Below, piece after piece: positions 10,082 through 53,695 of a stretch of DNA of 64,000 nucleotides. The DNA is from a virus (lineage: Duplodnaviria > Heunggongvirae > Uroviricota > Caudoviricetes), in IMG/VR virus record IMGVR_UViG_3300042554_002438; one strand, 5' to 3'. The translations under genes and the position numbers were made by a program. The notes beneath the pieces were generated by a model, which worked only from the letters and a program-made list of their open reading frames with translations, was not told where the DNA came from and searched no databases. How positions within the stretch are numbered: position 1 is the first letter of the stretch; every line of letters starts with the position of its first letter.

Positions 10082-10298
10082 CTTCTTTTTTAATATCCTC
10101 TCGAGTTAATTCTTTTTCAGCTTGGTGCATGAAGATAATCTCTTTTGTTTGTTCATCAACTGTGCAAGCGGCAATTGGTTTATCAACTCGGTAATGATAT
10201 TCTTCTCCTAGCATACCAACTTCTCCGTTGACAACTTCAAAGGCATCAAACTCCTCTGGTAGGGTGTTGAGCCACGTTTTTAATTCTCCTAAATTCAT
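10068..10298 (-). CDS. hypothetical protein
   Basis: 76 aa ORF. Confidence 0.4.
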   Translation of the reverse strand: MNLGELKTWLNTLPEEFDAFEVVNGEVGMLGEEYHYRVDKPIAACTVDEQTKEIIFMHQAEKELTREDIKKEDGKD

Positions 10299-15527: not shown

Positions 15528-15546
15528 AATAATTATTATTTTGGGG

Positions 15547-16518
15547 TTAAAATACGTTTAATTGTTTAACTAATGAGTGAATTGTTTTGTGCCTTGAAAG
15601 CGTGTCAACGATAGTTCCGTCTTGAACATCCTTCACACTATTTGTTGTGTAGATACCATCAAAATATTCACTTAGGAAATCAAACCCAGCGCTGAAGATG
15701 CCATGAGTAACTATCAAATAGTTTTTACCGTGGTGTTTTGGGTGAACAGTACTTGATATTTTTCTGGCATCATTGACAGCTTTAGCGATTTCAATGAATG
15801 TTCTACCACCATCGCAGATGTCATCAATAATGAAAATATCTTTGTCGGCATCGTTTACTGAAATTGGTACGTTAGTGTAATCAATCTTACCAGTTTCAAT
15901 ATTACGATGTTTTGATGCGATGATAACTTCATGTCTATATTTGAGTTGTTCAGCACAATGAAACACTTTTTTCAAAGCACCAGCATCGGGTGATACTAAA
16001 CGTACACCATCGAAATTCATGGAGTCCCAAATTTCAAATCCTTTTGATAAAAAGTAATCTTTAAATGCGAAATAAAGTAAAACGGTATTGTCCCGTTTCT
16101 CAAAGTTATTGATGCATGCCTCAAGAACATCTGAGTGTGGGTCAAGGACTGTTACCTTTTCGTAACCCTGTGAGTTAATGATTGGTGCGATTACGTTCTT
16201 AACATAATTGATACCACCTTCCGTAAACTTACGGTCGCTTCTAGCACCCATACAATAAGGAATGTAAAGACGAATACGATTAACACCAACCTCTTTTAAC
16301 GCTTGTGTTGCACAGATAATAATTTCCAAATCCTGGAATGTATTTAAACGAGATTTGATTGTTATACCTTGCGAATTATCTTTAAGTGAACAAAAGGTAT
16401 TGTATCCATTTTCAACCAATCTCAATGATTGTTGTCCATCGGGAAAACGACTAATCTCATATTTGAATGATAGCTTATCGTTATCGTTATGGTTAACTAA
16501 ATTTAAAAGTTCCGCCAT
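15547..16518 (-). CDS. prs: ribose-phosphate pyrophosphokinase (PRPP synthetase)
   Basis: 323 aa with PRPP-binding motifs (DDICDGGRT, DAGALKK). Confidence 0.8.
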   Translation of the reverse strand: MAELLNLVNHNDNDKLSFKYEISRFPDGQQSLRLVENGYNTFCSLKDNSQGITIKSRLNTFQDLEIIICATQALKEVGVNRIRLYIPYCMGARSDRKFTEGGINYVKNVIAPIINSQGYEKVTVLDPHSDVLEACINNFEKRDNTVLLYFAFKDYFLSKGFEIWDSMNFDGVRLVSPDAGALKKVFHCAEQLKYRHEVIIASKHRNIETGKIDYTNVPISVNDADKDIFIIDDICDGGRTFIEIAKAVNDARKISSTVHPKHHGKNYLIVTHGIFSAGFDFLSEYFDGIYTTNSVKDVQDGTIVDTLSRHKTIHSLVKQLNVF

Positions 16519-18825: not shown

Positions 18826-19347
18826 TTAAAATTTAATTCTAAGACCCATTTTTTGCATAGCCAATAATGCCTCGGCGTTACCCATAGCATCATCAACGGG
18901 ATTGTGAGTATGTTTTGTTTTTCTATACAAACGTTTCCACTCCTGGTTCTTACTAGCATCCTTAACCAAACCACAATACAAATCACCGATACGTCTGCCA
19001 GAAAACCCGAATGGGTTTCTACCGCAGTACTTATGCATGTACCAGTTAATCCACTGCCAATCAAAGGCTAAGTTATCGCTGATAAAGGTTGGTTTACCTT
19101 CGGAATTTTTAACTAACCATTTTTCGAACTCGCTCATAACCTCATATGGTTCCCCAAACTGTTCATGCTCAGACCTTGAAAACCCACTGACAGCTAACGC
19201 ATCTGGTTTGTATTGATCAGTTAATGGTCTGATCTTACCATAAAACGTTTTTGATGTGTCGGACACTTTAACAACACCGAAACATACAATTGAATGTGTA
19301 CCAACTAATTCACCATCAGCCTCAACATCCACTACAAAATAACTCAT
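18826..19347 (-). CDS. DEDDh 3'-5' exonuclease (DnaQ-like)
   Basis: VVDVEADGE Exo I motif and HNPVDDAMGNAE Exo III motif. Confidence 0.55.
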   Translation of the reverse strand: MSYFVVDVEADGELVGTHSIVCFGVVKVSDTSKTFYGKIRPLTDQYKPDALAVSGFSRSEHEQFGEPYEVMSEFEKWLVKNSEGKPTFISDNLAFDWQWINWYMHKYCGRNPFGFSGRRIGDLYCGLVKDASKNQEWKRLYRKTKHTHNPVDDAMGNAEALLAMQKMGLRIKF

Positions 19348-19778
19348 ATCTTTACTAATTTTTTAATTTCTCTGTCAATATCGCGCTTTTTAATTGTCTC
19401 GCGTTTATCGTAATTCTTTTTACCCCTAGCAATAGCGATTCTACATTTTATCTTACCAGAACCATTCAAGTAAAACCAAAACGGAACGATTGTTAAACCT
19501 TTTGTCAAACTGTTCTGAATCTTTCGGATTTCTGTTCTGTGTAAAAGTAATTTTTTATCACGATTCTCATCATGACCAAAAAATTCGCTATTTGTGGTTA
19601 TTTTAAAATTTTTGATGAACATTTCGTCATCCTTGATATAGCAAAACGCATCAACTATGCTAATTTTACCATCCTTAATTGCTTTAACTTCAGAGCCAAA
19701 AAGAATAATACCAGCCTCATACTCTTGAAGGTATTCATAATCAAATTTTGCTTTTCTATTTGTAACTAAAGTTTTCAC
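19344..19778 (-). CDS. smpB: SsrA-binding protein SmpB
   Basis: NRKAKFDYEYLQEYEAGIILFGSEVKAIKDGKISIVDAF...KLLLHRTEIRK...IARGKKNYDKRETIKKRD collinear with E. coli SmpB. Confidence 0.85.
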   Translation of the reverse strand: MKTLVTNRKAKFDYEYLQEYEAGIILFGSEVKAIKDGKISIVDAFCYIKDDEMFIKNFKITTNSEFFGHDENRDKKLLLHRTEIRKIQNSLTKGLTIVPFWFYLNGSGKIKCRIAIARGKKNYDKRETIKKRDIDREIKKLVKI

Positions 19779-19864: not shown

Positions 19865-20500
19865 TTAAAAGTAAGTTTGTTCGAAATACAATACTTCAAA
19901 TTTGTTCTCTTCGTTAATTAATTCAATTGCATTAATTAAATCATTATATTCAACGACAGATTCTTTTTGACCAGTTCTATAAGTTTGTAAGAAATCAAAT
20001 GTAGTTAAGTCATTCCCGAATAGTTTTGAAGATGTTGTGTTGTACTTCATCATCAAACCTAACTCTAACTTATAAGCTTCTCTAACTATCTCACATAATC
20101 CAGAGAAAGTTCTCTTAGTATCAACTGATGGTATAGTTGGGATAATATTAAATCCAACCATATACTCTTGTAACCCTTTAGCGTGTACTAATTCGGTATC
20201 AGCCTCAGCGTCAAAGAAAGCGCCAGCTTTTTTATAGTTTCTATCGTGACACCAGTTAGCGGCGTTTCTATAAAAATAATGGGCTTCATATTCATCGGCA
20301 ATTCTACTAGTCAATTCAGCGACAGTTTCGCCAGGTAAGTTATACAACATTTGGCCCTCATCTTCCATCGGTTCAACGGAAACAGCAACGGGGGTGACAT
20401 CTTCAGCATCTGGTGTCATTGTAACCTCAGCCTCAGGTAATTTATTATCCCTTGCAATGTTCATAATCTTACTTTTCATTTCTTCTTTTGTAACATTCAT
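19865..20500 (-). CDS. ferritin-like protein
   Basis: EYEAHYFYRNAANWC...AEADTELVHAKGLQE resembles ferritin di-iron helices; about 60-aa N-terminal extension. Confidence 0.45.
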   Translation of the reverse strand: MNVTKEEMKSKIMNIARDNKLPEAEVTMTPDAEDVTPVAVSVEPMEDEGQMLYNLPGETVAELTSRIADEYEAHYFYRNAANWCHDRNYKKAGAFFDAEADTELVHAKGLQEYMVGFNIIPTIPSVDTKRTFSGLCEIVREAYKLELGLMMKYNTTSSKLFGNDLTTFDFLQTYRTGQKESVVEYNDLINAIELINEENKFEVLYFEQTYF

Positions 20501-22529: not shown

Positions 22530-23138
22530 TTATATTAGATGTTTCAATATTTTTTCTTTAATACCAGATTGTTTTATACCCTCGAAATCTCTAGGCGTCC
22601 AGACAAAATTTTCTAAACCCCAATCGCGATCAAATGGGCCATATGAACTATTCTCAACATGTATACCCATGTGTAAATCATCAACAGCGACCCAATGAGT
22701 AACTTCTGGATGATCTCTTAACCAACGAAGGATTTCAAAATGTCTTTCTTGCTCCCTATCAGAGGTTCGAGTCCACGGAAAATCGTTATGGTCAGGGACA
22801 AACCCTTCCTCTAACCAATTTGTAAAATGAAACACCTCTGTTCCATCAATTGGTCTTTTAATAATACCTTTAGATTCATAGTAGTCACCTAATTCTTCAA
22901 TTGTCGCGTGTAATCGCCAATCGGAACTAACAACAATTTCAGCGCCAGTTTCTTCAAGTATTTCATTGAGCACTTTAACAGCTTTATCGTCAAAATTATC
23001 GAACCTATATTCAACAGGAATCTCTTTCGAGGTCATGGACAACTTTCTACCACCCCACTTTTCTTGTTTTTTGTATCGACTACCCCAATTGTTTGACAAA
23101 CAAATGACCCCGTCATTATCTAAAAATATAACTTTCAT
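22530..23138 (-). CDS. HAD-superfamily phosphatase (paralog 1)
   Basis: MKVIFLDNDGVI motif I (DxDGV) and VVSSDWR motif II. Confidence 0.55.
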   Translation of the reverse strand: MKVIFLDNDGVICLSNNWGSRYKKQEKWGGRKLSMTSKEIPVEYRFDNFDDKAVKVLNEILEETGAEIVVSSDWRLHATIEELGDYYESKGIIKRPIDGTEVFHFTNWLEEGFVPDHNDFPWTRTSDREQERHFEILRWLRDHPEVTHWVAVDDLHMGIHVENSSYGPFDRDWGLENFVWTPRDFEGIKQSGIKEKILKHLI

Positions 23139-23139
23139 C

Positions 23140-23712
23140 TTAATAATTTAAATCAATGATATCTTTTTCCAACATTGCTTTTGCAATTTCATAGTAATGT
23201 TGGTTAAACCCATCTTTATTTCTTGGTGATGGTAATACATGCACAAAATGATTACGTTGCCCGTAAAGCATATCAGAATCATCATCTATGATGATATAGT
23301 TTTCAACACCAGACTTATCCATGTACTCTTGCTGTACAACTTCATCCCAATTAATATGGTGGAATTGTAGATCGTTATTTAGGTAATACTCTATCTCCAT
23401 TCCTCGCGGAATTGAATAACCTTTGGCTCTCATACTAGGCGTGATGCCAATGATTTTACCTGCCATCTCTTCCATCTCCCAAACCTTTCTCATAAAGTCT
23501 ATACCACCGTGTCTCCAGGTTGAACTAACGACAATTTCGGCGCCAGTTTCAAGAATTAATTTGTTCATTAACTCTTTACTCCAAGAGCAAAATGTTTGAT
23601 AATGATCTTTGCGGCCATCTTCCCAAACCCATTCTTTGTATTGACACTCACCACTTCGATAAGCATTCTCGCAGTTCAACACACCGTCTATGTCAAGGAA
23701 TATTACTTTCAT
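23140..23712 (-). CDS. HAD-superfamily phosphatase (paralog 2)
   Basis: MKVIFLDIDGVL and VVSSTWR; tandem paralog of the preceding gene. Confidence 0.55.
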   Translation of the reverse strand: MKVIFLDIDGVLNCENAYRSGECQYKEWVWEDGRKDHYQTFCSWSKELMNKLILETGAEIVVSSTWRHGGIDFMRKVWEMEEMAGKIIGITPSMRAKGYSIPRGMEIEYYLNNDLQFHHINWDEVVQQEYMDKSGVENYIIIDDDSDMLYGQRNHFVHVLPSPRNKDGFNQHYYEIAKAMLEKDIIDLNY

Positions 23713-26916: not shown

Positions 26917-27513
26917 TTAAATTATTTGATCGATAACACCATTTTTCAAAGCTTCTTCTGCCGAAAAATACCAATCTTTTTTAAGATTTTTGATTTGGTC
27001 AAGTTGTTTCTGTTTCAGACGAGTACAATCAATTAAATGTGCGTCATAAACCATCATAATCCTTTTGGTTTCTTCAAGATTTTCCTTCAATATACTAAGT
27101 TTATCGTATGGCATTTGATCCAAACACTCATGATACATGTATGTCGATAACTTGTGTCCGTATCTTTTATCCCCAGATACTAATACAAGTAGAGCCATCG
27201 ACATAGCAGAACCAAAACAATAAGTATAGACCTCGGTATTCGAACTCTCTATTGCCGCGATTAAAGCAAAGCCATCATATACCGATCCCCCAAAGCTATT
27301 CACAATCAATTTTATTGGCTTACGTTCATAATCAACCAAATTCTCTTGGTTCTCGTCATCATACTCATTAATCTCAGCAATATATTGGATTATATCGCCT
27401 ACGGAAGATTCATCTATCTCGCTACTTAGTGTGATCGTCCTTGATGGATTTTCCCTATCAAAAGAAAAATACCTATTCTTCTTTTTGTTCTGGTTTTTTA
27501 ATTTCATATTCAT
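26917..27513 (-). CDS. ClpP-family serine protease
   Basis: LIVNSFGGSVYDG...CFGSAMSMAL...YMYHE aligns to the ClpP Ser/His catalytic region (INSPGGSV...GQAASMG...MIHQP). Confidence 0.65.
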   Translation of the reverse strand: MNMKLKNQNKKKNRYFSFDRENPSRTITLSSEIDESSVGDIIQYIAEINEYDDENQENLVDYERKPIKLIVNSFGGSVYDGFALIAAIESSNTEVYTYCFGSAMSMALLVLVSGDKRYGHKLSTYMYHECLDQMPYDKLSILKENLEETKRIMMVYDAHLIDCTRLKQKQLDQIKNLKKDWYFSAEEALKNGVIDQII

Positions 27514-27811
27514 ATGTCAACCATGGTTTTTTTTGTTGGGTGTTTAGTGCCTCAACTATCTTATTATAATTTTCTTCATAAAATCTTTCACCGTCTTCCG
27601 AATTTGCCCAAAATAGAAATCCTGGTTCAGTCTGCGTCCTCCCCAGGATTTCTTTTGTTGCTCTTCTATCTTTTTTAAGAAATGAAATACTAACATAGTT
27701 CAGTATAAACTTCCCATCAGTCTTTGACCAATACGCCAGTTGGCCAAATTTTTGTTTGTTCTTTACTCTGGCATTTTCAATAATCTCTATTAAAAATTTA
27801 ACATTTCCCAT
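27473..27811 (-). CDS. hypothetical protein
   Basis: 112 aa ORF. Confidence 0.4.
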   Translation of the reverse strand: MGNVKFLIEIIENARVKNKQKFGQLAYWSKTDGKFILNYVSISFLKKDRRATKEILGRTQTEPGFLFWANSEDGERFYEENYNKIVEALNTQQKKPWLTYEYEIKKPEQKEE

Positions 27812-29193
27812 TAACTAGATTCTTCCATATCAACCACACCCGAGTCTTTAACTATACCCTCAAGAACCTTAAACTCAAAAGATTTGTGTTTGTAAATTCT
27901 AGGTACCAGACCAGATTCTAATCTGACACATACACCCTCACGGATATGGGTATCATCGAGCATTGATTTACCTTTAGAATAAATATCAACAAGTTCAGTA
28001 ATCTTGTCATTAAAATCCCTATCACCGTTTATACTTGGATAGGTTAATTCCATTTCAATTCTTCTGAAACGTGTTATCTCTGGAACATGTTTTACACCTA
28101 TCTCATTACATCTTTTAACAACATCATCCCAAGTGTAATCAACTGATTGGCCATCTGGGTTGGTCATTGTCATACGGTACACATAAAAGTCTTGTTGGGC
28201 TGTCGAACAACCATATGAGTAAACCATGTGCTTTTTATCGCCCATGTTGGAATACTGTTTCGTGAATTCCTTATCACCCATTTTACTTGTATCAACAGAT
28301 GGCATGATTGGCGTATTCTCATTCTCATAACCAACAATCTCAAGATAAACAGTCTCACCTTTTCTTAGATTACCTTTGAAAAGAGCGAAAGCTTTATCTC
28401 TTATGGTTGGATCATGGAATTGGGTTGCATTTGATTTAGCCTCCTCCAAAACAACTCTGCGTGTACCAGTTAAATAAGCCCATTCAGTCTCGTTTATCTT
28501 GATACCAAGCTTAATCAATAATCTTTCAAACCAATTTAAATCACGGTCAACCAACACATGCCCAACTCTATGAGAAGTTCCGTGTAGTTTTTCTGTGATG
28601 ACAACCAAATCCTCACGATTTATTTGATGTACATTCTTACCAAAATGTTCGGTATCAATATGTTCCTTGAACATAACCGAAGTTTTTGCCACTCTGGTTT
28701 TTTTACCTTGGTTTTGTTGAGCGGCTTTTATTGTGTTCGGGTTGATGTACTTATTACAAATTGGTACACCACCCCATTCATCAATCTCAAGACCCTCATC
28801 AACCAGACCAGTCACATAAATGAAACCAAAACTGTGTAATGGTGTCCAGAAACCATCTGAGATTTCCCCACGAAATCTCTGGGCCCTAACCCTACGGTTA
28901 TCATCAAACATACCAGCTTTATCATCTGGGAATTTGTTCTTTGTTTTATCTCGATATAAGTTATTCGCATGGCAAAACTCATGAGATAACTGACCATCAC
29001 ATGGGAAGTATACCCCCCAATGATCTTCTTTGCAATCTAAACCAACCACCACTTGATTACCGTGGCATGTCGCTAATTGCACCTTATCCGCATTAGGATG
29101 CGGTCTAACGTTTTTAAGTTTTGTTACTATTCCTTTATACATATTTTTTACTTTGATTCTACCATTACGTAAGTACCCTCTACCATACCCCAT
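27811..29193 (-). CDS. ATP-dependent RNA ligase (Rnl2/Rnl5-like) with an N-terminal OB/tRNA-binding-like domain
   Basis: nucleotidyltransferase motif I ITEKLHGTSHRV (KxHGxx, as in T4 Rnl2 EKIHGTN); N-terminal ...RPHPNADKVQLATC... resembles tRNA-binding OB folds. Confidence 0.6.
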   Translation of the reverse strand: MGYGRGYLRNGRIKVKNMYKGIVTKLKNVRPHPNADKVQLATCHGNQVVVGLDCKEDHWGVYFPCDGQLSHEFCHANNLYRDKTKNKFPDDKAGMFDDNRRVRAQRFRGEISDGFWTPLHSFGFIYVTGLVDEGLEIDEWGGVPICNKYINPNTIKAAQQNQGKKTRVAKTSVMFKEHIDTEHFGKNVHQINREDLVVITEKLHGTSHRVGHVLVDRDLNWFERLLIKLGIKINETEWAYLTGTRRVVLEEAKSNATQFHDPTIRDKAFALFKGNLRKGETVYLEIVGYENENTPIMPSVDTSKMGDKEFTKQYSNMGDKKHMVYSYGCSTAQQDFYVYRMTMTNPDGQSVDYTWDDVVKRCNEIGVKHVPEITRFRRIEMELTYPSINGDRDFNDKITELVDIYSKGKSMLDDTHIREGVCVRLESGLVPRIYKHKSFEFKVLEGIVKDSGVVDMEESS

Positions 29194-29910: not shown

Positions 29911-30702
29911 TTATAATGATAAATCGTTTAATGAATAAATTCTTTTATAGCCAACATTATATCTTCGGTTATGTTCGCAATCCATAAGAAATGTGCATAT
30001 ACCAGCGTTGTTCAATTCAACAAAATTTTCATATCTATCATCAACAAACCAATCGATACCAGATTTTTTTGCTACCTCAACTTTTGATTGGTCAAACCCG
30101 ATACTATAAACTGGAACCGCTGGGAAATTCCACTTTTTTAACCACTCTTCAGTCCATTCCCTGGGAATTGATCTTGATGTGATATAACAATGTGGCTCAA
30201 ATGGTAGGTCTTTTGGGGTCACTTTGGGCTCAATGTTGAGCCAGAAATCCTTATCATCTCGCATTAATTCGAATTTTTCCTTAATATTTCTATCAAAATT
30301 CCAAAATAACACTGGTTCAATGATACCATGTCTTTTTGTCCAAGCGCCTAACCAATCAGCTAAAACTTCATCAATATCCAACCCTATCTTTGGTGGGTTA
30401 AGGTACCGATGTCGTCTATCATCACCTTGTGGGTGTATCTTATAGAACTCGGTTAAAAAAGCTGCGTTTGTTAATACATGTGAAATATGTAACAATCCAC
30501 TTTCAGGATCATGGTCTTCACCGTTCTTAAAAGCATTCAAGTGCCTCTCAAGTGATGCTATTACCTCAGACCATTGTAGGCCGTTCTCCCAATCCCTTTC
30601 GCCGTATATCTCAGCACCCTTCATAAGTGCTGTCGCTAACTGGTTATACGCAAATGGGGGAACCAGGTCATAGCGAGGTTTATCTTTTTTTTCTCTATTC
30701 AT
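29911..30702 (-). CDS. fusion: dNTP pyrophosphohydrolase-like N-domain and 5'(3')-deoxyribonucleotidase (NT5C-like HAD) C-domain
   Basis: N-terminal DKPRYDLVPPFAYNQLATALMKGAEIYGERDWENG (phage dATP/dGTP diphosphohydrolase-type motif); C-terminal KIGLDIDEVLADW (DxDxV HAD motif I of NT5C). Confidence 0.5.
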   Translation of the reverse strand: MNREKKDKPRYDLVPPFAYNQLATALMKGAEIYGERDWENGLQWSEVIASLERHLNAFKNGEDHDPESGLLHISHVLTNAAFLTEFYKIHPQGDDRRHRYLNPPKIGLDIDEVLADWLGAWTKRHGIIEPVLFWNFDRNIKEKFELMRDDKDFWLNIEPKVTPKDLPFEPHCYITSRSIPREWTEEWLKKWNFPAVPVYSIGFDQSKVEVAKKSGIDWFVDDRYENFVELNNAGICTFLMDCEHNRRYNVGYKRIYSLNDLSL

Positions 30703-31728: not shown

Positions 31729-32172
31729 TTAATCGATTATAGTTTCAATTGTATGGGGCACTACCCATCTAGCGCAGTCTTGGGGTAAGCGATGGATATG
31801 TTTATAGTTATTTATATAACCCATCATGTTTGCTGAACCGACAGCATTAGCTGAATGAACCATTACCTTACAAACAGGCGCACCATTCAACCACTGTTCA
31901 ACTAACCATTTAGTGCAGTCCATACCAGTTTTTTCGGTGATGTTATCATAGTTCAATTGATAATTGTGATAAACATTTGTGTGCCATTCTTTCATCGCAC
32001 TATCACCAAGATCATGATCAAGTGATATTAAATCAATATTCTCTAAACCAATTTCGGTTATTTTGGAAACAAACTCATCGTAGTCTCTGACAACAGTCCA
32101 CTCGATTGTCATGTGTGTTGACGGGTTAGGTAAAGGCGTCCTAAGATCGTCTAAGTATATATTATATCTCAT
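31729..32172 (-). CDS. hypothetical protein
   Basis: 147 aa ORF. Confidence 0.45.
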   Translation of the reverse strand: MRYNIYLDDLRTPLPNPSTHMTIEWTVVRDYDEFVSKITEIGLENIDLISLDHDLGDSAMKEWHTNVYHNYQLNYDNITEKTGMDCTKWLVEQWLNGAPVCKVMVHSANAVGSANMMGYINNYKHIHRLPQDCARWVVPHTIETIID

Positions 32173-33858: not shown

Positions 33859-34369
33859 AAAAAGTTAAAATTATATCCTTAACGGTATCATCGTTTGTGT
33901 GTGTCCTGGCCGTTAATAACTTATACTTCTCAAAAAATGGGTCGTACTCTGATGAAAAATATTGATATTTATTCAACTCGTCTATATTTTTCGCAAAATA
34001 TTCATTGACCATAATTCTTTCACTTGATGTGGTCTGCATAAGCATTATGTAAACCAAGAAACCATCATCAGTTGTTAAAAAAACAACGTTATTTTTAAAA
34101 TTGATTGATATGAAATTTAAAAAATCGTCATTAATCATACCCGAATATTTGAATGGGCATAATTTATACAGAACACCCATCTGGCCAATCAATATCGGTT
34201 GTATTTCTTGATTAAAAGAATTGGTGATAAATATATTATCACCATTTTCTTCAAGGATTTTTGCAAAAAAAATATCCTTGAACACATTCTTATTTAAGTC
34301 AATATAATACTTTATGATTTTGTTAAAAGCCTCATCAAAAAATTTTGGATCTTTCATTTTAACCATCAA
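33854..34369 (-). CDS. hypothetical protein
   Basis: 171 aa ORF. Confidence 0.45.
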   Translation of the reverse strand: MMVKMKDPKFFDEAFNKIIKYYIDLNKNVFKDIFFAKILEENGDNIFITNSFNQEIQPILIGQMGVLYKLCPFKYSGMINDDFLNFISINFKNNVVFLTTDDGFLVYIMLMQTTSSERIMVNEYFAKNIDELNKYQYFSSEYDPFFEKYKLLTARTHTNDDTVKDIILTFS

Positions 34370-35460
34370 CTTATCGCATATATTCTTTTTCTAAAACGAA
34401 TTAACAAGTCGTCAACAAATTTTCTATCAACAGAATTAGGTAGATCTGATTTTGCGTAAAGGTCATCCAAAAGTGTGATTTTTGATTCCGCTTCGGCAAG
34501 AAGATCCTCATATTCAGCATCACCATTTCTTATTTTAAGTAATTCCTCAGCATCTGGTCTTTTGACGATCACTTGTTTAAGTTCGGCAATCTCGGTTGCC
34601 ATACGTATCAACCTAATACAGTGCATCATATTTTTTGAATCATAACCCTTACCATGTTCTTGGTTTGTGTTATATCGATCGTCATTACGCTTTTCAACCC
34701 AATCCCAGTATTCCTTATAATCTTTACAGTAAGAAGTATAACCATCCTTGTTATAGATAATTGTCGCAACTGGCTTTTCGCCAAATGGAATGGAACTTAA
34801 TCTAACCTCATTCGATGTGTCATCATCATTGACGATGCCACGATAACCGAGCCTAGAATTTTCTTTACTGGCGTAATGATCATAAAACATGGCGTATACA
34901 TCTCTGGCATGTGGTACATTAACCAAACCACATTTGTTCTGTACATAACCACTATTGTCCAAAAATGCTTTGAGTGGGATCGATTTATAACCATCGACAA
35001 CATAGCAAAAATCCAATATAGATTTGCGCTCTTTGTCAACTGGGTTTACAATTTTTTTGTTTAACCCGCGAGCTTTTTTAATTTGTGCGACAGCGTACCC
35101 ACCAAATGAATCGCGGCAAACTTTACTGATGAACTTATCCTTATGTTGTAGAATCATATCAAACATTGGGTGTTTGTAAAGTATATTCTCTTCGGGCATA
35201 TTGAATAACTCAATTATGTTTGGGTTTTGCGATTGTAATAATTGCAAGAACCTACCAATCTCATAGTAGACAGCATCATTTGTGGCATCCGAAACTTGTT
35301 CAATATAGTCATATCCCAGTACGTTATCAAGCGGTAAGTAGTAAACTCCACGATAATCGGTATCGGATGTTGGTTTGTGTGTACCATACGCCCTTGATCC
35401 AGATATTGTTTCAAACAATAAAAGTCCATTCGTTCTTAAATAATCTATCGTTAATCGCAT
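34366..35460 (-). CDS. Pol-beta-superfamily nucleotidyltransferase (RlaP-like; RNA-repair associated)
   Basis: GSRAYGTHKPTSDTDYRGV = GS...[DE]x[DE] nucleotidyltransferase motif with a helical C-terminal domain. Confidence 0.5.
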   Translation of the reverse strand: MRLTIDYLRTNGLLLFETISGSRAYGTHKPTSDTDYRGVYYLPLDNVLGYDYIEQVSDATNDAVYYEIGRFLQLLQSQNPNIIELFNMPEENILYKHPMFDMILQHKDKFISKVCRDSFGGYAVAQIKKARGLNKKIVNPVDKERKSILDFCYVVDGYKSIPLKAFLDNSGYVQNKCGLVNVPHARDVYAMFYDHYASKENSRLGYRGIVNDDDTSNEVRLSSIPFGEKPVATIIYNKDGYTSYCKDYKEYWDWVEKRNDDRYNTNQEHGKGYDSKNMMHCIRLIRMATEIAELKQVIVKRPDAEELLKIRNGDAEYEDLLAEAESKITLLDDLYAKSDLPNSVDRKFVDDLLIRFRKRIYAIS

Positions 35461-38521: not shown

Positions 38522-40606
38522 ATGGCACAAAAAGTATCATATACAGGGGTTTTCTTGGACAAGGATTCAAGAGCCGTATTAGAAAAAGAGTTCAAATCGC
38601 AGGTTCCTGATGGATGGGAGTGGATTGCGCATCATATGACCATAACTTTAGGGGAAATGGTTGATAAATCGGAATTGGGTAAACAAGTTGCCCTTAATAT
38701 AGTTTCATTTGGTAAAGATGATAAAGTCATGGCAATTGGTGTCAAGGGTTACCCTAGTAAAAATGAAAAACCGCACATTACTTTAGCCGTTAATCGCGCT
38801 GAGGGTGGTAAACCTTATATGAGTAATTTAATTAAGGAATGGGTACCATACTCGATCGGTGCCATATTAACTGGTGTTGTCAGTGAATACCCGCCACAAT
38901 CTAAAGAAACACTTAATGAAGCTTATGATATTAAATCATTACCGTTCTATAACGATGTTATCAATAAAAACGGTAAAATATATCAGGTTGGTGGGGCTGT
39001 TAGAGATTTGTATCTGGGTAAACAATCTAAAGACCTTGACATCGTTATTAGTGGAATACCAGCTAAGGAACTCGAAGATGTGTTGAAAAAATATGGTAAA
39101 GTTGATATGGTTGGTGCGTCATTTGGTGTTATTAAGTTCACACCACCAGATGGTGAAGAAATTGATATTGCAATACCAAGAACTGAAAAGAAGAGTGGTG
39201 TTGGTTATCAGGGTTTTGATGTGTCGGCTGATCACACTCTCCCTATCGAAAAGGATCTTGAGAGAAGAGATTTCACAATAAATTCAATCGCTAAAGATAG
39301 TGATGGGAATGTTATTGATCCATTCGGTGGGTTAAAGGATCTTGATTCGAAGGTTATCAAATTAACAAACCCTAAGGCTTTTTCAGATGACCCATTAAGG
39401 ATGTTAAGGGCGATTCAATTTGCGTCTAGGTTTGGTTTTAAAATAGATGAGGAAACGTTTGATGCTATTAAAAAGAATGCGATGACTATTGACGAAATAT
39501 CAAAAGAGAGAATATTGATAGAGTTTGATAAAATCGTAAACAAAGGTAATCCCAGAGTCGGAGCTGAGTTATTAGTTTCAAGTGGATTGTACAGGGGCAT
39601 ATTCGGTACCGAGTTTGATGGTGATTTTGAACCGTTTGACCAAGTAACTAGGAACAGTGAGTTCGCTTACTGGTTGATCCAATCGTTCACCGAACAACCA
39701 GACCAATACTATAAGAATATAATGAAAGGTGACATCGATACGGCTAGAGAGATATCAGCTTTGGCTTATATGTATAACAACTTACCTGGTAACGACAAAG
39801 CAAAACAAAGATTTGTTTATTTTAATATAAATAAGATATCACCACAGATGTTTAATAGTAATTTCGTGAGAAGTATATTGAGTGATGTTATCAATGACTT
39901 TGATTCTCAAAAATACCCAGCTGGTTATTCGGATTTAAAAGTCAATGGTAATGATTTAATGGCAATGGGTTTAAAAGGTAAAGCTGTTGGTGATATGTTA
40001 AATAAATTAATCTCTGCAATATATTCTGATAAAATTGAAAATACAAAGAATGGTTTGTTGGGTTTTGTTGAGAGGAATAAGGATATGTTAAATGAATCTG
40101 TTGGTGGTACAAATAAGAATAGAGTTGTGTTTTATGATTTTGATGGTACTTTAATGGATAGTCCACTTCCTGACACAGGTAAACAAATCTATAAAGAAAA
40201 AACTGGTAATGTATACCCACATCAAGGTTGGTGGGGTCGTGCTGAGAGTTTGGATTTAAATGTCTTCGACATAAAAACAAATCCAGATGTTGAGGCTAAA
40301 TTTAGAGCTGACTCATCGGATCCAAATACGCATGTTGTTTTATTAACCAATAGGTTGTCAAAACTTGAGGAACCAATTAAAAAAGTTCTTGACAAACATA
40401 ATATGGTATTCGATTTTTATTCTTTTAAAAATGATGGTCGTGAAAAGGGTGAACGTGTTTTGGATATTTTAGCCAAAGTATATCCGAATACGAATGAAAT
40501 TGAATTTTATGATGACGATGAGCGACACATTCAAAATGTAAGAGATAATTTAATCGACACCGATTACGATTTCAAGGTGAATCAAGTTATTGATGGTAGA
40601 TTATAA
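38522..40606 (+). CDS. tri-domain RNA end-healing enzyme: 2H phosphoesterase, CCA-adding nucleotidyltransferase (class II) and HAD 3'-phosphatase
   Basis: N-terminal HHMTIT and PHITLA = two H-x-T/S-x motifs of 2H/LigT CPDases; middle GGAVRDLYLG...DLDIV...RRDFTIN...DPFGGLKDL...DPLRMLRAIQFA = CCA-adding/poly(A) polymerase head domain; C-terminal VVFYDFDGTLMD (DxDGT), LLTNR and YDDDERH = HAD phosphatase motifs as in the T4 Pnkp C-domain. Confidence 0.8.
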   Translation: MAQKVSYTGVFLDKDSRAVLEKEFKSQVPDGWEWIAHHMTITLGEMVDKSELGKQVALNIVSFGKDDKVMAIGVKGYPSKNEKPHITLAVNRAEGGKPYMSNLIKEWVPYSIGAILTGVVSEYPPQSKETLNEAYDIKSLPFYNDVINKNGKIYQVGGAVRDLYLGKQSKDLDIVISGIPAKELEDVLKKYGKVDMVGASFGVIKFTPPDGEEIDIAIPRTEKKSGVGYQGFDVSADHTLPIEKDLERRDFTINSIAKDSDGNVIDPFGGLKDLDSKVIKLTNPKAFSDDPLRMLRAIQFASRFGFKIDEETFDAIKKNAMTIDEISKERILIEFDKIVNKGNPRVGAELLVSSGLYRGIFGTEFDGDFEPFDQVTRNSEFAYWLIQSFTEQPDQYYKNIMKGDIDTAREISALAYMYNNLPGNDKAKQRFVYFNINKISPQMFNSNFVRSILSDVINDFDSQKYPAGYSDLKVNGNDLMAMGLKGKAVGDMLNKLISAIYSDKIENTKNGLLGFVERNKDMLNESVGGTNKNRVVFYDFDGTLMDSPLPDTGKQIYKEKTGNVYPHQGWWGRAESLDLNVFDIKTNPDVEAKFRADSSDPNTHVVLLTNRLSKLEEPIKKVLDKHNMVFDFYSFKNDGREKGERVLDILAKVYPNTNEIEFYDDDERHIQNVRDNLIDTDYDFKVNQVIDGRL

Positions 40607-43162: not shown

Positions 43163-43248
43163 TCGGAGTGGAGGGATTCGAACCCCCTGAGTTTCCAATG
43201 TGCCAGATTTACAGTCTGGTGCCCATCCGCCGTCTGAGCAGCACTCCG
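43163..43248 (-). tRNA. tRNA-Tyr (GTA), class II
   Basis: CGGAGTG/CACTCCG acceptor, CCAGA-CTGTAAA-TCTGG anticodon arm, 15-nt variable arm (bacterial type). Confidence 0.75.
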
Positions 43249-43261
43249 AAATGATATAAAA

Positions 43262-43288
43262 CAAAAAACCCTGAGATTTTGTCCCAGG
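43262..43288 (-). terminator. rho-independent terminator (minus strand) upstream of the tRNA array
   Basis: A-run then ccctgagattttgtcccaggg hairpin; followed on plus by the conserved GGGCTTCTACTAT. Confidence 0.55.
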
Positions 43289-43460
43289 GCTTCTACTATT
43301 TTATATAATTAGTTTCCAAAAAAAATCGTTAACTAAAAGACAATAGAAGCCCTGTTCCAGCTGGATATGCTGGAGCTGCTGGACAACTATACGGCCATGC
43401 CACGATATTTTTGTTCAAATTTTTCATTTTGTCTTTATAAATAGTGTGTTCTTTTAAAAA

Positions 43461-43505
43461 GTGATACAAATATAAGCACAGTTTTTTAAATAAGCAAGTT
43501 TTTTT
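43461..43505 (-). promoter_or_regulatory. promoter-like motif copy
   Basis: gtgatacaaatataagcacagttttttaaataagcaagttttttt. Confidence 0.4.
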
Positions 43506-43528
43506 AAAAATTAATCATAAATTTCTGT

Positions 43529-43572
43529 TATATCGGTCATGTGATACAAATATATCGGTCATGTGATACAAA
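43529..43572. repeat. 22-bp tandem direct repeat x2 (tatatcggtcatgtgatacaaa)
   Basis: two adjacent identical copies; the GTGATACAAA core also starts the promoter-like motif at 43461. Confidence 0.6.
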
Positions 43573-43593
43573 CCAGGCGCTTACCACTCACAA

Positions 43594-43668
43594 TTGGGGC
43601 GAACGATGAGGTTCGAACTCACGACCTCCTGAACCACAATCAGGCGCTCTAACCAACTGAGCTACGTC
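43594..43668 (-). tRNA. tRNA-His (GTG) with encoded G-1 and encoded 3' CCA
   Basis: G-1 paired to C73, GCGGACG acceptor, CCTGA-TTGTGGT-TCAGG anticodon arm; CCA is templated. Confidence 0.8.
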
Positions 43669-43682
43669 CGCCATGTAATCCC

Positions 43683-44525
43683 CTACCTGTTGGTGGGGAT
43701 TAAGTTATTTAAATATTCTCTATTTTGAGTAAAGATTGGTGTTTCGACATCCAATTCCCAAGCGCTTCTGGTGTAAACATCCTTTGGATCAATCACAACC
43801 GTATCACGATTGACTTCCGCATTGGCACTTTTACGAACAAACGTCTTTTCAATTTTTCTGATTATACCACCACGTTTTTCTCTTGGTGAGTAATCATTCC
43901 AATTTGTACCAGCCTGAAATATCAATTCTTGCATACCATCGGTCTTAACCCCATGTAATTGTTTTGGTGAGTATAAACTCTGAGCGACCGATGAAATTGA
44001 ATTTCTGGTCGCATCTTGTTGTCTCCAGATGAAATAATTCTCAACCTCAACTTTTTGTGGGATTTGAAATACCCTGGCATCAAACATAGCCAATTTAGGT
44101 TCGCTGGCGTATCTTTTATCCGTCACAGACTTTCTCTCGATAACATGTAGATTCTTAATATAACGATCCATTCTCAATTTATTAAAGATGGCTGTTGCCA
44201 TTGAGGCTGAAACGCTCGCCATTTTCTGTAAGTTATTATCGAACCAAGCTTGTGTGCCCTCATCTTCAAAATCGGTGATCAAAATTGAAATCTCATCTGA
44301 TTGCACATACGCAAACTTAGCACCCATAATGTTTTTACATAGATATGCCGCTGTCTCATCCATATCATCAATCAAATCCAAATCAAATGGCCTTCTCAAA
44401 CCTTTTGTATAGGTGTGAAAAGCCTTACCATCAATTCTGATAATGGTGTAACCTCTTCTTGGTAATGAAATACGAGTTCTATCCTCATAGTTCGATTTCA
44501 TTCTGTCTCCTAATGCGTCTTTCAT
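43683..44525 (-). CDS. Thg1-like protein (tRNA-His guanylyltransferase / 3'-5' nucleotidyltransferase family)
   Basis: RIDGKAFH, YVQSDEISIL (conserved QSDE catalytic motif) and FIWRQQD collinear with Thg1 (RLDGRNFH, YGQSDEYSF, LSWRQAD). Confidence 0.75.
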   Translation of the reverse strand: MKDALGDRMKSNYEDRTRISLPRRGYTIIRIDGKAFHTYTKGLRRPFDLDLIDDMDETAAYLCKNIMGAKFAYVQSDEISILITDFEDEGTQAWFDNNLQKMASVSASMATAIFNKLRMDRYIKNLHVIERKSVTDKRYASEPKLAMFDARVFQIPQKVEVENYFIWRQQDATRNSISSVAQSLYSPKQLHGVKTDGMQELIFQAGTNWNDYSPREKRGGIIRKIEKTFVRKSANAEVNRDTVVIDPKDVYTRSAWELDVETPIFTQNREYLNNLIPTNR

Positions 44526-44956
44526 TTTATTTCTTGGTTAATTTTATATTCTTCTTCTGTTGCTATTCTAATTGGTACGAACAGCGCATACCCATCATCA
44601 TCCTCAAAATGGTTACAATCGTCTTCATAAGTCATATTAAACTTAGTTCGATTGTAGATGAACTTGTTTTGTTTGACATCCCATTTTGCTATGGTGGCTC
44701 TCCTATGATCACCCGCATAAAACTGACCGTCAACCAAATTTTTTTTCTGAATAGCCCCAGCGCCAATTAATTTTGGTACATAAAAGTTATTCCACTCATC
44801 AGTTTCAACTCGTGGTAATTCGGGTATATCATTAACACCAGCGAATGGTTTTAATGTCTCCCAATATTCACGAATACGTTGTTCCCTTTCAGCTTTTTCA
44901 ATTTCTCGTTTAGCTTTCAGTTCAGCGAATATCATATCTTTATCAATCTGTTCCAT
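44522..44956 (-). CDS. hypothetical protein
   Basis: 144 aa ORF. Confidence 0.45.
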
Positions 44957-44960
44957 AACA

Positions 44961-45045
44961 AATCATTTTGCGGAGAGGGAGGGATTCGAACCCCCGTTAC
45001 CTTTCGGTAAAACGGTTTTCAAGACCGCCGCGATCAACCGCTCTG
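44961..45045 (-). tRNA. tRNA-Ser (TGA), class II
   Basis: GGAGAGG/CCTCTCC acceptor, CTTGAAA anticodon loop, long variable arm. Confidence 0.7.
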
Positions 45046-45107
45046 CCACCTCTCCAATATTTCACAAATATAAGAATAAAAATGTTAATTAACAAGTTTA
45101 TTTTTGG

Positions 45108-45181
45108 TAGGCATGGTAGGACTCGAACCTACGACCTTCTGCGTATCAGACAGACGCTCTAACCAACTGAGCTACATGCCT
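45108..45181 (-). tRNA. tRNA-Ile (GAT)
   Basis: AGGCATG/CATGCCT acceptor, TCTGT-CTGATAC-GCAGA anticodon arm. Confidence 0.7.
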
Positions 45182-45188
45182 ATATTTG

Positions 45189-45262
45189 TACACCCTGATG
45201 GATTCGAACCACCGACCCCCTGCATGTAAGGCAGGTGCTCTAACCAACTGAGCTAAGGATGC
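45189..45262 (-). tRNA. tRNA-Val (TAC)
   Basis: CCTGC-CTTACAT-GCAGG anticodon arm, GGTGG-TTCGAAT-CCATC T-arm. Confidence 0.7.
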
Positions 45263-45268
45263 AAATTG

Positions 45269-45342
45269 TGACCCCATCGGGACTCGAACCCGAAACCTTC
45301 GCATTAAAAGTGCGAAGCTCTAACCAATTGAGCTACGAGGTC
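45269..45342 (-). tRNA. tRNA-Lys (TTT)
   Basis: TCGCA-CTTTTAA-TGCGA anticodon arm, TCGGG-TTCGAGT-CCCGA T-arm. Confidence 0.75.
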
Positions 45343-45350
45343 ATATAAAA

Positions 45351-45386
45351 CAAAAAACCCAGGTGGTTTACCTGGGTTTTCTTTTC
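45351..45386 (-). terminator. rho-independent terminator (hairpin with T-runs on both strands)
   Basis: cccaggtggtttacctggg flanked by an A-run and a T-run. Confidence 0.6.
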
Positions 45387-45515
45387 TAACTCTATGTTCT
45401 TTAGTTTAACATAAATTAGGCAATACTAACCCAGCCCAGTTTTTCACCGAGATATGTTTAATTGACTTAATAATGTTAACCATTGTGTTCATTTTACTGA
45501 TTTTTAAATATATAG

Positions 45516-45565: not shown

Positions 45566-45958
45566 TTAAAAAATTTCTCTTTTACCTCTAGATACTGGCT
45601 CCAAACCTTTATTTCTGTCAATATAGATCCAGTCATATTCAACCAAACCGAACTCATTGAGATGGTCTAATACGGTCTCAATACTATATTCTTTACATGA
45701 ATAAATGTCAAATTGAACCAAACTTGGTGTATTTGCATCCCAAATATGAATCGCAGCATGTGAGGTTGCAAGGGTTATTGTCCCAGTAATACCCTCATTA
45801 CCTGGCTCGTCAACATAAATGGACGTTGGGCCAGCAACGACAACCATACCAACTTTATTTACCAACGAGGTTAACCATGCGTCTAAAACCTCTTCCTTCT
45901 TTGGTGGATTTAAAACGTATCCACGGACGATTAAATGCAAGTGATTTGGATTGAACAT
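45566..45958 (-). CDS. pyruvoyl-dependent decarboxylase, SpeH-like S-adenosylmethionine decarboxylase family
   Basis: TGTITLATSHAAIHIWDANTPSLVQFDIYSCKE collinear with the SpeH core ([27 protein letters not shown]). Confidence 0.5.
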   Translation of the reverse strand: MFNPNHLHLIVRGYVLNPPKKEEVLDAWLTSLVNKVGMVVVAGPTSIYVDEPGNEGITGTITLATSHAAIHIWDANTPSLVQFDIYSCKEYSIETVLDHLNEFGLVEYDWIYIDRNKGLEPVSRGKREIF

Positions 45959-46427: not shown

Positions 46428-48080
46428 TTATAAACTGTAAATTCCAAAAGGCGTAATTAAATAATCAATGATTTTATTTTTTAAATGAGTCATAGCTTCT
46501 TCGGGACGATTTACTATTGGCTCGTTATGAACATTAAATGAAGTATTTACCAAACAACCAAAACCTGTTTGATTTTTATAAGATTTCAAAATATGATAAA
46601 ATAATGGATTTGAATTTTTAGTTACAATTTGAATACGTGCCGTTTTGTCCACAGGATGGACAACAGTTGGTAACTTATCTTTCCATTCATCTCGTGTTTC
46701 AAAACATAATGTCATAAACTCAGCGGCATATCTAGATTTATTCACTATAAACAATCGATTAGCATCCTCATCTATTACTGCTGGCGCAAAAGGCATAAAA
46801 TCGTTACGTTGTAACTTATCATTAATTAATTTATAAGTTTCGGGGTGAGTGGCGTCACAAATAATACTTCTATTACCTAAAGCTCTAGGGCCGTGTTCAA
46901 ATTTGCCCTGAAATAATCCTAATATTTTTTTATTAAGTAATAAAACAGTAATAAAATCTATATTAAAAGGAATATAATTATATGTTCCTAAAATATTTTT
47001 TGCCGCTTCATCTACGTGTTCTTTATCATACTCATTCCCAAAAAACACATTATTTAATCTAAAAGGTTTAAAATCAGGATGAAGTTGTTTAATCGTTCCT
47101 AAAACACACCCTAAAGCTAACCCCTCATCACCCATTGGGGGGGCTATAAATACTTCATCCACCCATTCTAGTTCATTAATTAATTTATTCATTTTTACAT
47201 TAGCAAAAATACCTCCAGCCATTGCCACTTTTTTAACATGAGGATATTTTTGATGTAAATTATTAAGTATTTTTAAGATTTTTTCCTCAAATACTTTCTG
47301 TCCAGTATAAGCAATGTTTTTAATAGTTTCATGATTCTTCCAATATCGAGAACCCATTGATTTAAAAAAGTTTTGATAAGTTTTTAAAAAAACATTTCCC
47401 CCAGCTAAATCACTATCATCAGAAAAAGGTGAAATTTCTGTTTGAAGACCATCAATTTTAATAACTTCGTTAAAAGCATCATATATTTCAGGTATTAGTC
47501 CTCCATGCCCAGCCATACCCACTACTTTACCTTCATCTTTTAATCTTTTAAATCCTATTAATTCTGTAATAGCGGCATAAAATAGTCCTAAAGAATCTCT
47601 ATTTAATAAAATCCCATCGATATACTCTAAATTACCATTTTTACCTAAATAATACTTAGCTGAATGATTTTCTCCTGAACCATCAATAGCCACAACTAAT
47701 GTATCTTCTTGAAAGTTAGATAAGTAATATGCTGTATTAATATGAGAATCGTGGTGTTCGATTTTAATATATTTTTCTTTTTCTAAATTAAAATTAATGG
47801 TCATTTTAAAAATATCTCTGATTATTTCGTAATCGTAAAAACTAGTGAAATAATTTACTTTTCCTAAATCTACATCATGTTTAACTATTAATTCAGTAAG
47901 AGAAGCTAAAGGATATCTAAAATAATTATTTTCAAAATCTTTATAAGGTTTAATCCTATTTAATCTTTCTTCCTCTAAGACTACTTTTAAATCGCCATTT
48001 TCAAAATAAGCTAACCCACAGCTGTGAGAACCACCAATAATTCCTAATATTCGATAGGAAGAATTTTCGTACAATTTCAT
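46428..48080 (-). CDS. carbamoyltransferase (NodU/CmcH family)
   Basis: 550 aa; YRILGIIGGSHSCGLAYFENGDLKVVLEEERLNRIK N-terminus typical of NodU/HypF-type carbamoyltransferases. Confidence 0.7.
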   Translation of the reverse strand: MKLYENSSYRILGIIGGSHSCGLAYFENGDLKVVLEEERLNRIKPYKDFENNYFRYPLASLTELIVKHDVDLGKVNYFTSFYDYEIIRDIFKMTINFNLEKEKYIKIEHHDSHINTAYYLSNFQEDTLVVAIDGSGENHSAKYYLGKNGNLEYIDGILLNRDSLGLFYAAITELIGFKRLKDEGKVVGMAGHGGLIPEIYDAFNEVIKIDGLQTEISPFSDDSDLAGGNVFLKTYQNFFKSMGSRYWKNHETIKNIAYTGQKVFEEKILKILNNLHQKYPHVKKVAMAGGIFANVKMNKLINELEWVDEVFIAPPMGDEGLALGCVLGTIKQLHPDFKPFRLNNVFFGNEYDKEHVDEAAKNILGTYNYIPFNIDFITVLLLNKKILGLFQGKFEHGPRALGNRSIICDATHPETYKLINDKLQRNDFMPFAPAVIDEDANRLFIVNKSRYAAEFMTLCFETRDEWKDKLPTVVHPVDKTARIQIVTKNSNPLFYHILKSYKNQTGFGCLVNTSFNVHNEPIVNRPEEAMTHLKNKIIDYLITPFGIYSL

Positions 48081-53310: not shown

Positions 53311-53319
53311 AAATTTCTG

Positions 53320-53695
53320 TGGAGTCGGAGGGATTCGAACCCTCGTCTCGTTTAGCCATTCAATAATTCTCATTCACATGCTTAGTTCATTTTTCTAAAC
53401 AAACAAAATATTTGTCTTCACTAACCCAGAAGTTCAATAAAACTGGAATACCTTTTTTGGAGTTCCCACCTCCCACCTGGCATCTAAGGGTTTTTGCAGT
53501 TTTAACTGACAGTTGTTGGCTTACGCCAATTCGTAGTCTGCAAACTCAACTGGCTGACCGTTCAACACGATGTTGCCTTCAGCGTCAATGTAGCTTTCGC
53601 CATCTGAAATTGTGTATAGGTTATTTAAGTGTTTCCGATACTAACACCACATGCAAATTAAAGAACGAATCTACCGATCGATTCCAGTCGACCCC
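53320..53695 (-). ncRNA. ssrA: candidate tmRNA (ssrA)
   Basis: 376-nt RNA with a tRNA-Ala-like tRNA-like domain: 5' GGGGTCG pairs with 3' CGACTCC (G3-U70 wobble, A73); GAGGG-TTCGAAT-CCCTC T-arm; 5' GGGGTCGACTGGAATCGATCGG resembles the tmRNA consensus GGGGCUGAUUCUGGAUUCGACGGG; internal frame ...GCA GAC TAC GAA TTG GCG TAA; SmpB is encoded at 19344..19778. Confidence 0.55.

Follow-up and report, generated by a model that had tools for sequence, protein, structure and literature searches.

What would a phage do with a Thg1-like protein (TLP) when the tRNA-His gene beside it already encodes the extra 5' guanosine, G-1? The question is raised by a 64,000-nt stretch of IMG/VR record IMGVR_UViG_3300042554_002438, a Caudoviricetes sequence (the whole stretch is called the window here), in which a TLP gene ends a few nucleotides from a tRNA-His gene. 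To our knowledge, TLPs are the only polymerases known to make RNA in the 3'-to-5' direction, and we know of a physiological role established only in Dictyostelium mitochondria. Judged from its sequence, the phage protein is a genuine member of the Thg1 family and belongs to the bacterial TLP type, not to eukaryotic Thg1. We put the probability at about 60% that it is an active enzyme serving as the 5'-end arm of a phage tRNA and RNA maintenance kit, in which it would repair tRNA 5' ends in a templated manner. The elements at issue are the following.

43683..44525, minus strand: TLP gene, 280 aa, predicted templated 3'-5' nucleotidyltransferase (Pfam, PHROG, PDB, AlphaFold2 [AF2] model, and ratio of nonsynonymous to synonymous substitution rates [dN/dS])
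43595..43672, minus strand: tRNA-His(GUG) including the encoded G-1 (ARAGORN, 43595..43671; Rfam RF00005, 66.7 bits)
43676..43702, minus strand: hairpin covering the end of the TLP coding sequence, TAG stop included, and finishing 4 nt short of G-1 (folding and conservation)

The open reading frame (ORF) at 43683..44525 begins with ATG and ends with TAG. An initial annotation, made from the DNA letters alone, had read the Thg1 catalytic signature in it, and all three of the motifs it quoted are present (RIDGKAFH at residues 30–37, QSDE at 75–78, and WRQQD at 167–171), with profile and PDB matches far above chance. The profile check it had proposed, against PF04446 (Thg1), returned 93.1 bits against a gathering score of 29.2 (E = 1.7e-26, profile positions 3–130 of 130), and PHROG 4717 ("tRNA-His guanylyltransferase") matches the protein over its full length (E = 3.3e-85). 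Among solved structures, phmmer placed BtTLP first (4kgk, E = 3.2e-63, ~44% identity), followed by weaker matches to Candida Thg1 (4e-11), the archaeal TLP of M. acetivorans (5axk, 1e-8), and human Thg1 (2.5e-5). An AF2 model built from 40 homologues has a pLDDT of 90.1 and a pTM of 0.87. When this model was compared with the PDB using Foldseek, the top 32 matches were all Thg1 or TLP structures, identifying a polymerase-like palm fold, and the best was again BtTLP (4kgm/4kgk, E = 9e-24, TM-score on the target 0.87, 44% identity). A scan of NCBIfam found no matching model for the TLP. A defence-system or mCpol-like identity was considered and rejected, as no PADLOC model matched the TLP, or the 144-aa ORF upstream of it, at E ≤ 0.01.

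Alignment with characterized enzymes indicates that the active site is intact. In BtTLP, D30, D75, and E76 are the metal-binding and third carboxylates, and R28, E12, S74, R131, and R147 contact the nucleoside triphosphate (NTP) (PMC3701042). The carboxylates D32, D77, and E78 of the phage protein align with this BtTLP triad and with D29, D76, and E77 of hTHG1; the initial annotation had made the assignment depend on these acidic residues surviving a proper alignment, and all three are kept. The NTP-contacting residues correspond to R30, E14, S76, R151, and R168, and K101 is the equivalent of hTHG1 K95. Residue conservation was scored in a set of 40 homologues with 41%–91% identity, where D77 and E78 are invariant, D32 is retained in 39, and R30, E14, S76, K101, R151, and R168 are likewise invariant. 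Compared with five relatives, the gene has a dN/dS of 0.05–0.13 with dS > 1, which indicates strong purifying selection. The kept catalytic residues and these ratios led us to reject a pseudogene or decayed enzyme.

The type of enzyme follows from a motif. HINNLYN is specific to eukaryotes and reads the GUG anticodon (PMC6471195); in the phage protein, it is absent and TRNSISS stands in its place (window WRQQDATRNSISS vs Candida WRQVDCHINNLYN), which argues for a bacterial-type TLP and not Thg1 proper. Eukaryotic Thg1 enzymes (yeast, human, and Candida; PDB 3otb, 3wbz, and 5xox) share the superfamily, the palm fold, and the two-metal active site, but are only 18%–24% identical to the phage TLP. 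The adjacent tRNA separates the two cases further. Its G+1 lies at 43671, G-1 at 43672, C73 at 43598, and C74, C75, and A76 at 43597..43595, so that a G-1 able to pair with C73 and a templated CCA, both claimed earlier, can be read directly from the sequence. The tRNA itself had been placed at 43594..43668; it exists, although its ends were 1–4 nt off from the ARAGORN call. Because the G-1:C73 pair is already encoded, a non-templated adder of the kind that acts opposite A73 is unneeded, and TLP-type repair is the better reading. The earlier preference for a TLP-type repair enzyme over a canonical G-1 adder therefore holds, given also that BtTLP is the best solved relative and that HINNLYN is missing.

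BtTLP is accordingly the closest model (Rao 2011, PMC3061083; Hyde 2013, PMC3701042). The two proteins are alike over their full length in sequence, in fold, in their catalytic carboxylates and NTP-binding residues, and in lacking HINNLYN. They differ in that the phage protein, known here from sequence and a model, is phage encoded and 280 rather than 245 aa long, with two loops (approximately residues 123–141 and 231–250) that exceed their BtTLP counterparts in a family where length varies at both places. It also has S179 in place of M158. By analogy with BtTLP, the phage enzyme would act on a tRNA that has lost 5' nucleotides, using ATP or GTP to activate its 5'-monophosphate or starting from a 5'-triphosphate already present. 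The 3' strand of the acceptor stem would select each incoming NTP by Watson-Crick pairing, the 3'-OH of that NTP would attack the activated end, and extension in the 3'-to-5' direction would continue until the acceptor stem was whole again. The preferred substrates would be 5'-truncated tRNAs of any identity, as BtTLP strongly prefers the repair of such tRNAs and is not confined to tRNA-His (PMC3061083). Among many possible reactions would be the C73-templated restoration of G-1 on tRNA-His.

A repair role gains context from other genes of the window, which encodes the following components of RNA repair and translation maintenance.

38522..40606, plus strand: CCA-adding enzyme fused to a HAD_SAK_1 phosphatase domain (PF01743, E = 1e-24; PF12627; PF10307; phrog_2244)
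34366..35460, minus strand: RlaP-family Pol-beta nucleotidyltransferase, RNA-repair associated (PF10127, E = 3e-20)
27811..29193, minus strand: ATP-dependent RNA ligase (phrog_968, E = 3e-65; PF09414; PF21189)
22530..23712, minus strand: two tandem genes for HAD_SAK_2 phosphatases, the "Swiss Army Knife" RNA-repair HAD (PF18143, E = 1.5e-21 and 4.2e-20)
31729..32172, minus strand: protein with a cREC (cyclic-phosphate processing receiver) domain (PF20274, E = 5e-22)
53317..53695, minus strand: transfer-messenger RNA (tmRNA) (Rfam RF00023, 78.8 bits, E = 6e-29), missed by ARAGORN in the window
19344..19778, minus strand: SmpB, the tmRNA partner (PF01668, E = 6e-48)

An RNA ligase, RlaP, HAD_SAK_1 and HAD_SAK_2 domains, cREC, a CCA-adding enzyme, and 27 tRNAs thus occur in one window, in agreement with the phage RNA-repair gene set reportedly described by Burroughs and Aravind in 2016 and treated by Iyer et al. 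in 2021 (PMC7824862). Two of the assignments were also compared with curated models: the CCA-adding enzyme matches NCBIfam CCA tRNA nucleotidyltransferases (best E = 1.7e-53, 182 bits), all under the curated cut-offs, and the ligase matches TIGR02306 (E = 4e-13) with 48.9 bits, under the cut-off of 151. In the proposed kit, the CCA-adding enzyme and HAD_SAK_1 would serve 3' ends and the TLP would be their 5'-end counterpart. Internal breaks would fall to the RNA ligase, RlaP, the HAD_SAK_2 phosphatases, and cREC, and stalled ribosomes to SmpB and tmRNA. With such a kit, the 27 phage tRNAs, and probably those of the host too, would stay usable during infection, and its purpose may be counter-defence or quality control. 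The analysis establishes the family, the fold, the intact active site, purifying selection, and the gene context; enzymatic activity, substrates, co-transcription, and purpose are inferred. Similar genes accompany TLPs elsewhere. When ORFs within 4 kb of the TLP were clustered across 80 related viral loci, the recurrent neighbors were NAMPT (15–16 loci), YqeY (13), HAD_SAK_2 (12–14), phosphoribosyl pyrophosphate (PRPP) synthetase-like (10–11), nucleoside deoxyribosyltransferase-like (9), and CCA-adding enzyme (7–8) genes. Together with the gene set of the window, these neighbors match the published RNA-repair view of such phages (PMC2904730, PMC7824862).

Several observations weigh against a tRNA 5'-end repair role. 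The repair genes are dispersed over ~30 kb instead of sharing an operon with the TLP. A scan of ~35 window ORFs revealed no polynucleotide kinase, which leaves the preparation of a 5'-OH end unexplained. Nor did the analysis identify a nuclease or other process by which tRNAs would lose 5' nucleotides during infection. The lysine that positions ATP in BtTLP, K43, is R45 in the phage protein, at a position where the family is split between arginine (21) and lysine (17). Finally, we found no experimental study of any phage TLP in the literature.

The arrangement of the TLP and tRNA-His genes bears on whether the enzyme has a preferred substrate. On the coding (minus) strand, the TLP does lie directly upstream of tRNA-His, as first noted, with the TAG stop ending at 43683, 10 nt ahead of G-1. 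The hairpin that spans this stop has a minimum free energy of -15.5 kcal/mol (z = -4.6), and none of 200 shuffled sequences was equally stable. Six contig lineages have a TLP that is at least 74% identical, comprising the window, L001–L003 (91%), L167 (85%), L168 (79%), L169/L170 (75%), and L171 (74%). In all six, a tRNA-His(GUG) starts 11–12 nt past the TLP stop. G-1 is encoded in every lineage, C73 in five, and CCA in two; the acceptor stem shows compensatory changes between related lineages. The stop-codon hairpin is also kept in all six, with one stem position occupied by UA, CG, AU, or GC pairs. Its role may be to stabilize the 3' end that RNase P cleavage would leave on the TLP mRNA, or to signal processing.

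Some of the tRNAs in these lineages are unusual. The tRNA-His of L167 (5855..5929) combines A73 with an encoded G-1, which is either a eukaryote-like G-1:A73 arrangement or an assembly error. In L171, the TLP is followed by an 87-nt tRNA (4870..4956) that has a GUG anticodon, G-1, and C73; its variable arm is long, its D-arm and T-loop are atypical, and it resembles a class II tRNA-His. Possible amber suppressors, tRNAs with a CUA anticodon that ARAGORN labels tRNA-Pyl, occur in L169 (2520..2592) and L171 (1622..1693); none was found in the window, where the TLP stops with TAG.

This junction could mean that the TLP is dedicated to tRNA-His identity, adding or restoring a C73-templated G-1 after RNase P has cut at +1 or a 5' nucleotide has been lost, and so securing charging by the host histidyl-tRNA synthetase (HisRS). 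The 10–11 nt spacing between stop and tRNA-His and the hairpin persist across the six lineages despite dS > 1 and shuffled flanking genes, G-1 and C73 are retained as described, and the L171 tRNA has a very different body, yet presents GUG, G-1, and C73 at the same position. There is also biochemical precedent, in that BtTLP adds G-1 opposite C73 in vitro (PMC3061083) and Dictyostelium TLP2 does so in mitochondria (PMC6471195). Against this, G-1 is already encoded, and G-1:C73 is the standard bacterial arrangement and normally sufficient; the A73 of L167 would not pair with G under a templated enzyme. Flanking genes of the TLP and tRNA-His vary between contigs of the clade, and the wider tRNA array and an S-adenosylmethionine (AdoMet) decarboxylase gene (AdoMet_dc) are broadly syntenic, so that common descent accounts for the adjacency. 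An adjacency within a broadly syntenic array says little about a function specific to tRNA-His. We therefore regard a dedicated tRNA-His enzyme as possible but unlikely. A bolder version, in which the TLP, the stop-codon hairpin, and the G-1:C73 tRNA-His of this freshwater, tRNA-rich phage clade would form one selected expression and processing module, strikes us as distinctly doubtful. There, the RNase P cut would set the 3' end of the TLP mRNA and the TLP would guard the one phage tRNA that relies on an extra 5' nucleotide. If so, the virus would encode an identity-repair system specific to one tRNA, perhaps in response to a host activity that shortens tRNAs from the 5' end.

More distant relatives decide how far the arrangement extends. 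None of 80 IMG/VR loci with a TLP of 47%–73% identity has an adjacent tRNA-His, and ~70 have no tRNA of any kind within 4 kb (ARAGORN); where an IMG/VR TLP does lie inside a tRNA array, its neighbors are tRNA-Leu or tRNA-Trp. ARAGORN placed no tRNA-His next to the TLP in three further metagenomic loci (L172–L174) either. Among 80 bacterial or metagenome-assembled genome (MAG) loci, no tRNA-His is adjacent, any tRNA is present in 13, and in one a tRNA-His lies ~2 kb off. Phages XacN1, PK-3, and Vibrio 1.170.O have no tRNA-His by the TLP and no tRNA within 3 kb. These absences count against a dedicated tRNA-His enzyme, and adjacency as a family-wide trait was rejected beyond the clade with at least 74% identity, being absent from ~165 more distant viral, bacterial, and GenBank phage loci. 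The position next to tRNA-His, which had been singled out as noteworthy, is thus conserved within its own clade and missing elsewhere. It is an inherited, tightly linked clade-level synteny and not a trait of the family, and the junction hints at co-expression or processing without demonstrating a function specific to tRNA-His.

The scarcity of tRNAs near most TLP genes of related viruses and bacteria also raises the prospect that the enzyme acts mainly on RNAs beyond tRNA acceptor stems. Structured 5' ends of other kinds, or the tRNA-like domain of the phage's tmRNA, would be examples, and the gene would lie in a tRNA array only because accessory genes gather there. The phage carries its own tmRNA and SmpB, and TLPs recognize RNA more broadly than Thg1 does (PMC6471195). 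The TLP activities characterized in the reports consulted (PMC3701042, PMC3061083, PMC6471195) are nevertheless all on tRNA or tRNA-like substrates, and the window offers no pointer to a specific alternative substrate, so we give this explanation little credence. As an observation apart, tmRNA and SmpB constitute a complete trans-translation pair; a tmRNA, its tag peptide called, is present in L167 as well.

A dense tRNA array further invites comparison with mitochondria-style tRNA 5' editing, in which mismatched 5' nucleotides encoded in the acceptor stem are removed and then resynthesized by a TLP. Dictyostelium TLP3 provides the only proven in vivo function of a TLP (PMC6471195). The window has a G+C content of 35% and 27 tRNA genes, all on the minus strand, and acceptor stems are fully paired (Watson-Crick or G-U) in 26 of them; tRNA genes never overlap. 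The sole mismatch, U1.U72, is in an initiator-like tRNA-Met(CAU) (58969..59041, minus strand), where a 1:72 mismatch is expected. Editing of this kind was rejected after all 27 acceptor stems had been checked, and we consider it to have next to no chance of being correct. Dictyostelium TLP2 and TLP3, which have demonstrated in vivo roles on tRNAs, resemble the phage enzyme in being of the TLP type, and TLP2 acts on a C73 tRNA-His like the one beside the phage gene (PMC6471195). They differ in setting, as the phage tRNA-His has a genome-encoded G-1, unlike the TLP2 substrate, and the phage tRNA 5' ends are paired, unlike those served by TLP3.

The TLP can be placed in a probable transcription unit with two further elements upstream.

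44522..44956, minus strand: 144-aa ORF whose stop overlaps the TLP start (ATGA) (phrog_18490, unknown function, E = 1.6e-16)
44970..45342, minus strand: sub-array of tRNA-Lys, tRNA-Val, tRNA-Ile, and tRNA-Ser, directly upstream (ARAGORN)

Terminator-like hairpins at 45382..45352 and 43294..43264 (minus strand) enclose the TLP along with tRNA-Lys, Val, Ile, Ser, and His. The two are alike, each with 13 pairs followed by TTTTTTGTTTTATAT, and each lies ~10–15 nt upstream of a tRNA sub-array (tRNA-Lys and tRNA-Tyr); they may be combined terminator and promoter punctuation of the tRNA arrays. Since the TLP shares this bracketing pair with the flanking tRNAs, it is probably co-transcribed with them, and its mRNA would be released by tRNA processing. 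A scan for sigma-70 promoters over 43200..45500 gave nothing above shuffled expectation. Only 4 of the 27 tRNAs encode CCA (His, Ile-GAU, Gly-UCC, and the Met at 58209) and most others end N73-C-A-A-A, which fits the phage having its own CCA-adding enzyme. The 144-aa ORF had no Pfam, PADLOC, or NCBIfam match. It was rejected as a conserved TLP partner, as tblastn on L001–L083 matched only the 91%-identical L001–L003. In L167, a called gene of equal length, 144 aa, lies one ORF further upstream of the TLP.

TLP genes are widespread in phages. A tblastn search found homologs in 164 GenBank phage records, at most 48% identical and usually annotated as tRNA-His guanylyltransferase, mostly from large phages of Bacillus, Prevotella (Lak), Caulobacter, Mycobacterium, Erwinia, Xanthomonas, and other hosts. 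Such genes (for example in 201phi2-1, XacN1, and the herelleviruses PK-3 and TsarBomba) share PHROG 4717 and large phage genomes with the window TLP and often lie near NAD+ salvage or CCA-adding genes. The window TLP differs in its divergence and in being set in a tRNA array 10–11 nt from a tRNA-His, whereas the GenBank examples checked had no nearby tRNA. A megablast search of 2.1 kb against GenBank phages gave no match at the DNA level, and the closest relatives of the protein (74%–99% identity) are on metagenomic contigs of up to 177–310 kb. A metagenomic protein database contained more than 8000 TLP matches at E < 1e-10; clustering at 50% yielded 1271 clusters at E < 1e-30. Bacterial relatives with 40%–57% identity occur in Bacteroidota, Armatimonadota, Paenibacillus, Clostridia, and actinomycetes, with the nearest (~56%–57%) in Bacteroidota. 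Several matches labeled as MAGs are probably mis-binned phage contigs. The best "genome" matches, with 62% and 50% identity, are to a Methanobacterium MAG contig (L084, 170 kb) and a Pacearchaeota MAG contig (L099, 425 kb), and both are probably mis-binned contigs of large phages rather than archaeal genes.

The claim that phage TLPs are rarely discussed stands for the Thg1 enzymology literature, in that the words "phage" and "virus" do not occur in a 2019 review of Thg1 and TLPs (PMC6471195). It does not hold for phage genomics, where the family is routinely annotated, as the GenBank records and PHROG 4717 attest, and has been discussed. Anantharaman et al. (2010, PMC2904730) pointed out that phage 201phi2-1 has a Thg1 and suggested that it counters host defences through RNA repair, and Iyer et al. 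(2021, PMC7824862) counted Thg1, as a sporadic enzyme that restores 5' ends, among the RNA-repair systems of jumbo phages, beside CCA-adding enzyme and RlaP. The gene family, its occurrence in phages, and the proposed repair role are therefore already known, and as a sequence finding this is mainly another well-supported example in an annotated phage gene family. The novelty is limited to a divergent member and to the clade-conserved junction of TLP, hairpin, and tRNA-His. The causes of tRNA 5'-end damage in vivo should be experimentally approachable in phages that combine a TLP with a full RNA-repair set and tRNAs of their own, and the junction provides a first concrete candidate substrate.

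Other features of the window were also recorded. A 22-nt unit, TATATCGGTCATGTGATACAAA, is duplicated exactly and in tandem at 43529..43572 (plus-strand coordinates), just downstream of tRNA-His on the coding strand; its core, GTGATACAAA, has 4 copies in the window against 0.3 expected, and a near-tandem 18-nt repeat lies at 43472..43507. A second, odd tRNA-Met of 78 nt with a weak D-arm is located at 58209..58286. Auxiliary genes, all on the minus strand, include NAMPT and a PRPP-synthetase-like protein for NAD+ salvage (13998..16518), a ClpP-like protease (26917..27513), a ferritin-like protein (19865..20500), the AdoMet decarboxylase (45566..45958), and a NodU/CmcH-type carbamoyltransferase (46428..48080). 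A short adenylosuccinate-synthetase homolog of 341 aa (10295..11320, minus strand) matches the PurZ PHROG (phrog_1211, E = 3e-69), and the protein at 29911..30702 (minus strand) contains a dATP/dGTP diphosphohydrolase N-terminal domain (PF18909, MazZ-like). Together, the PurZ-like and MazZ-like proteins suggest a genome containing 2-aminoadenine (Z-base).

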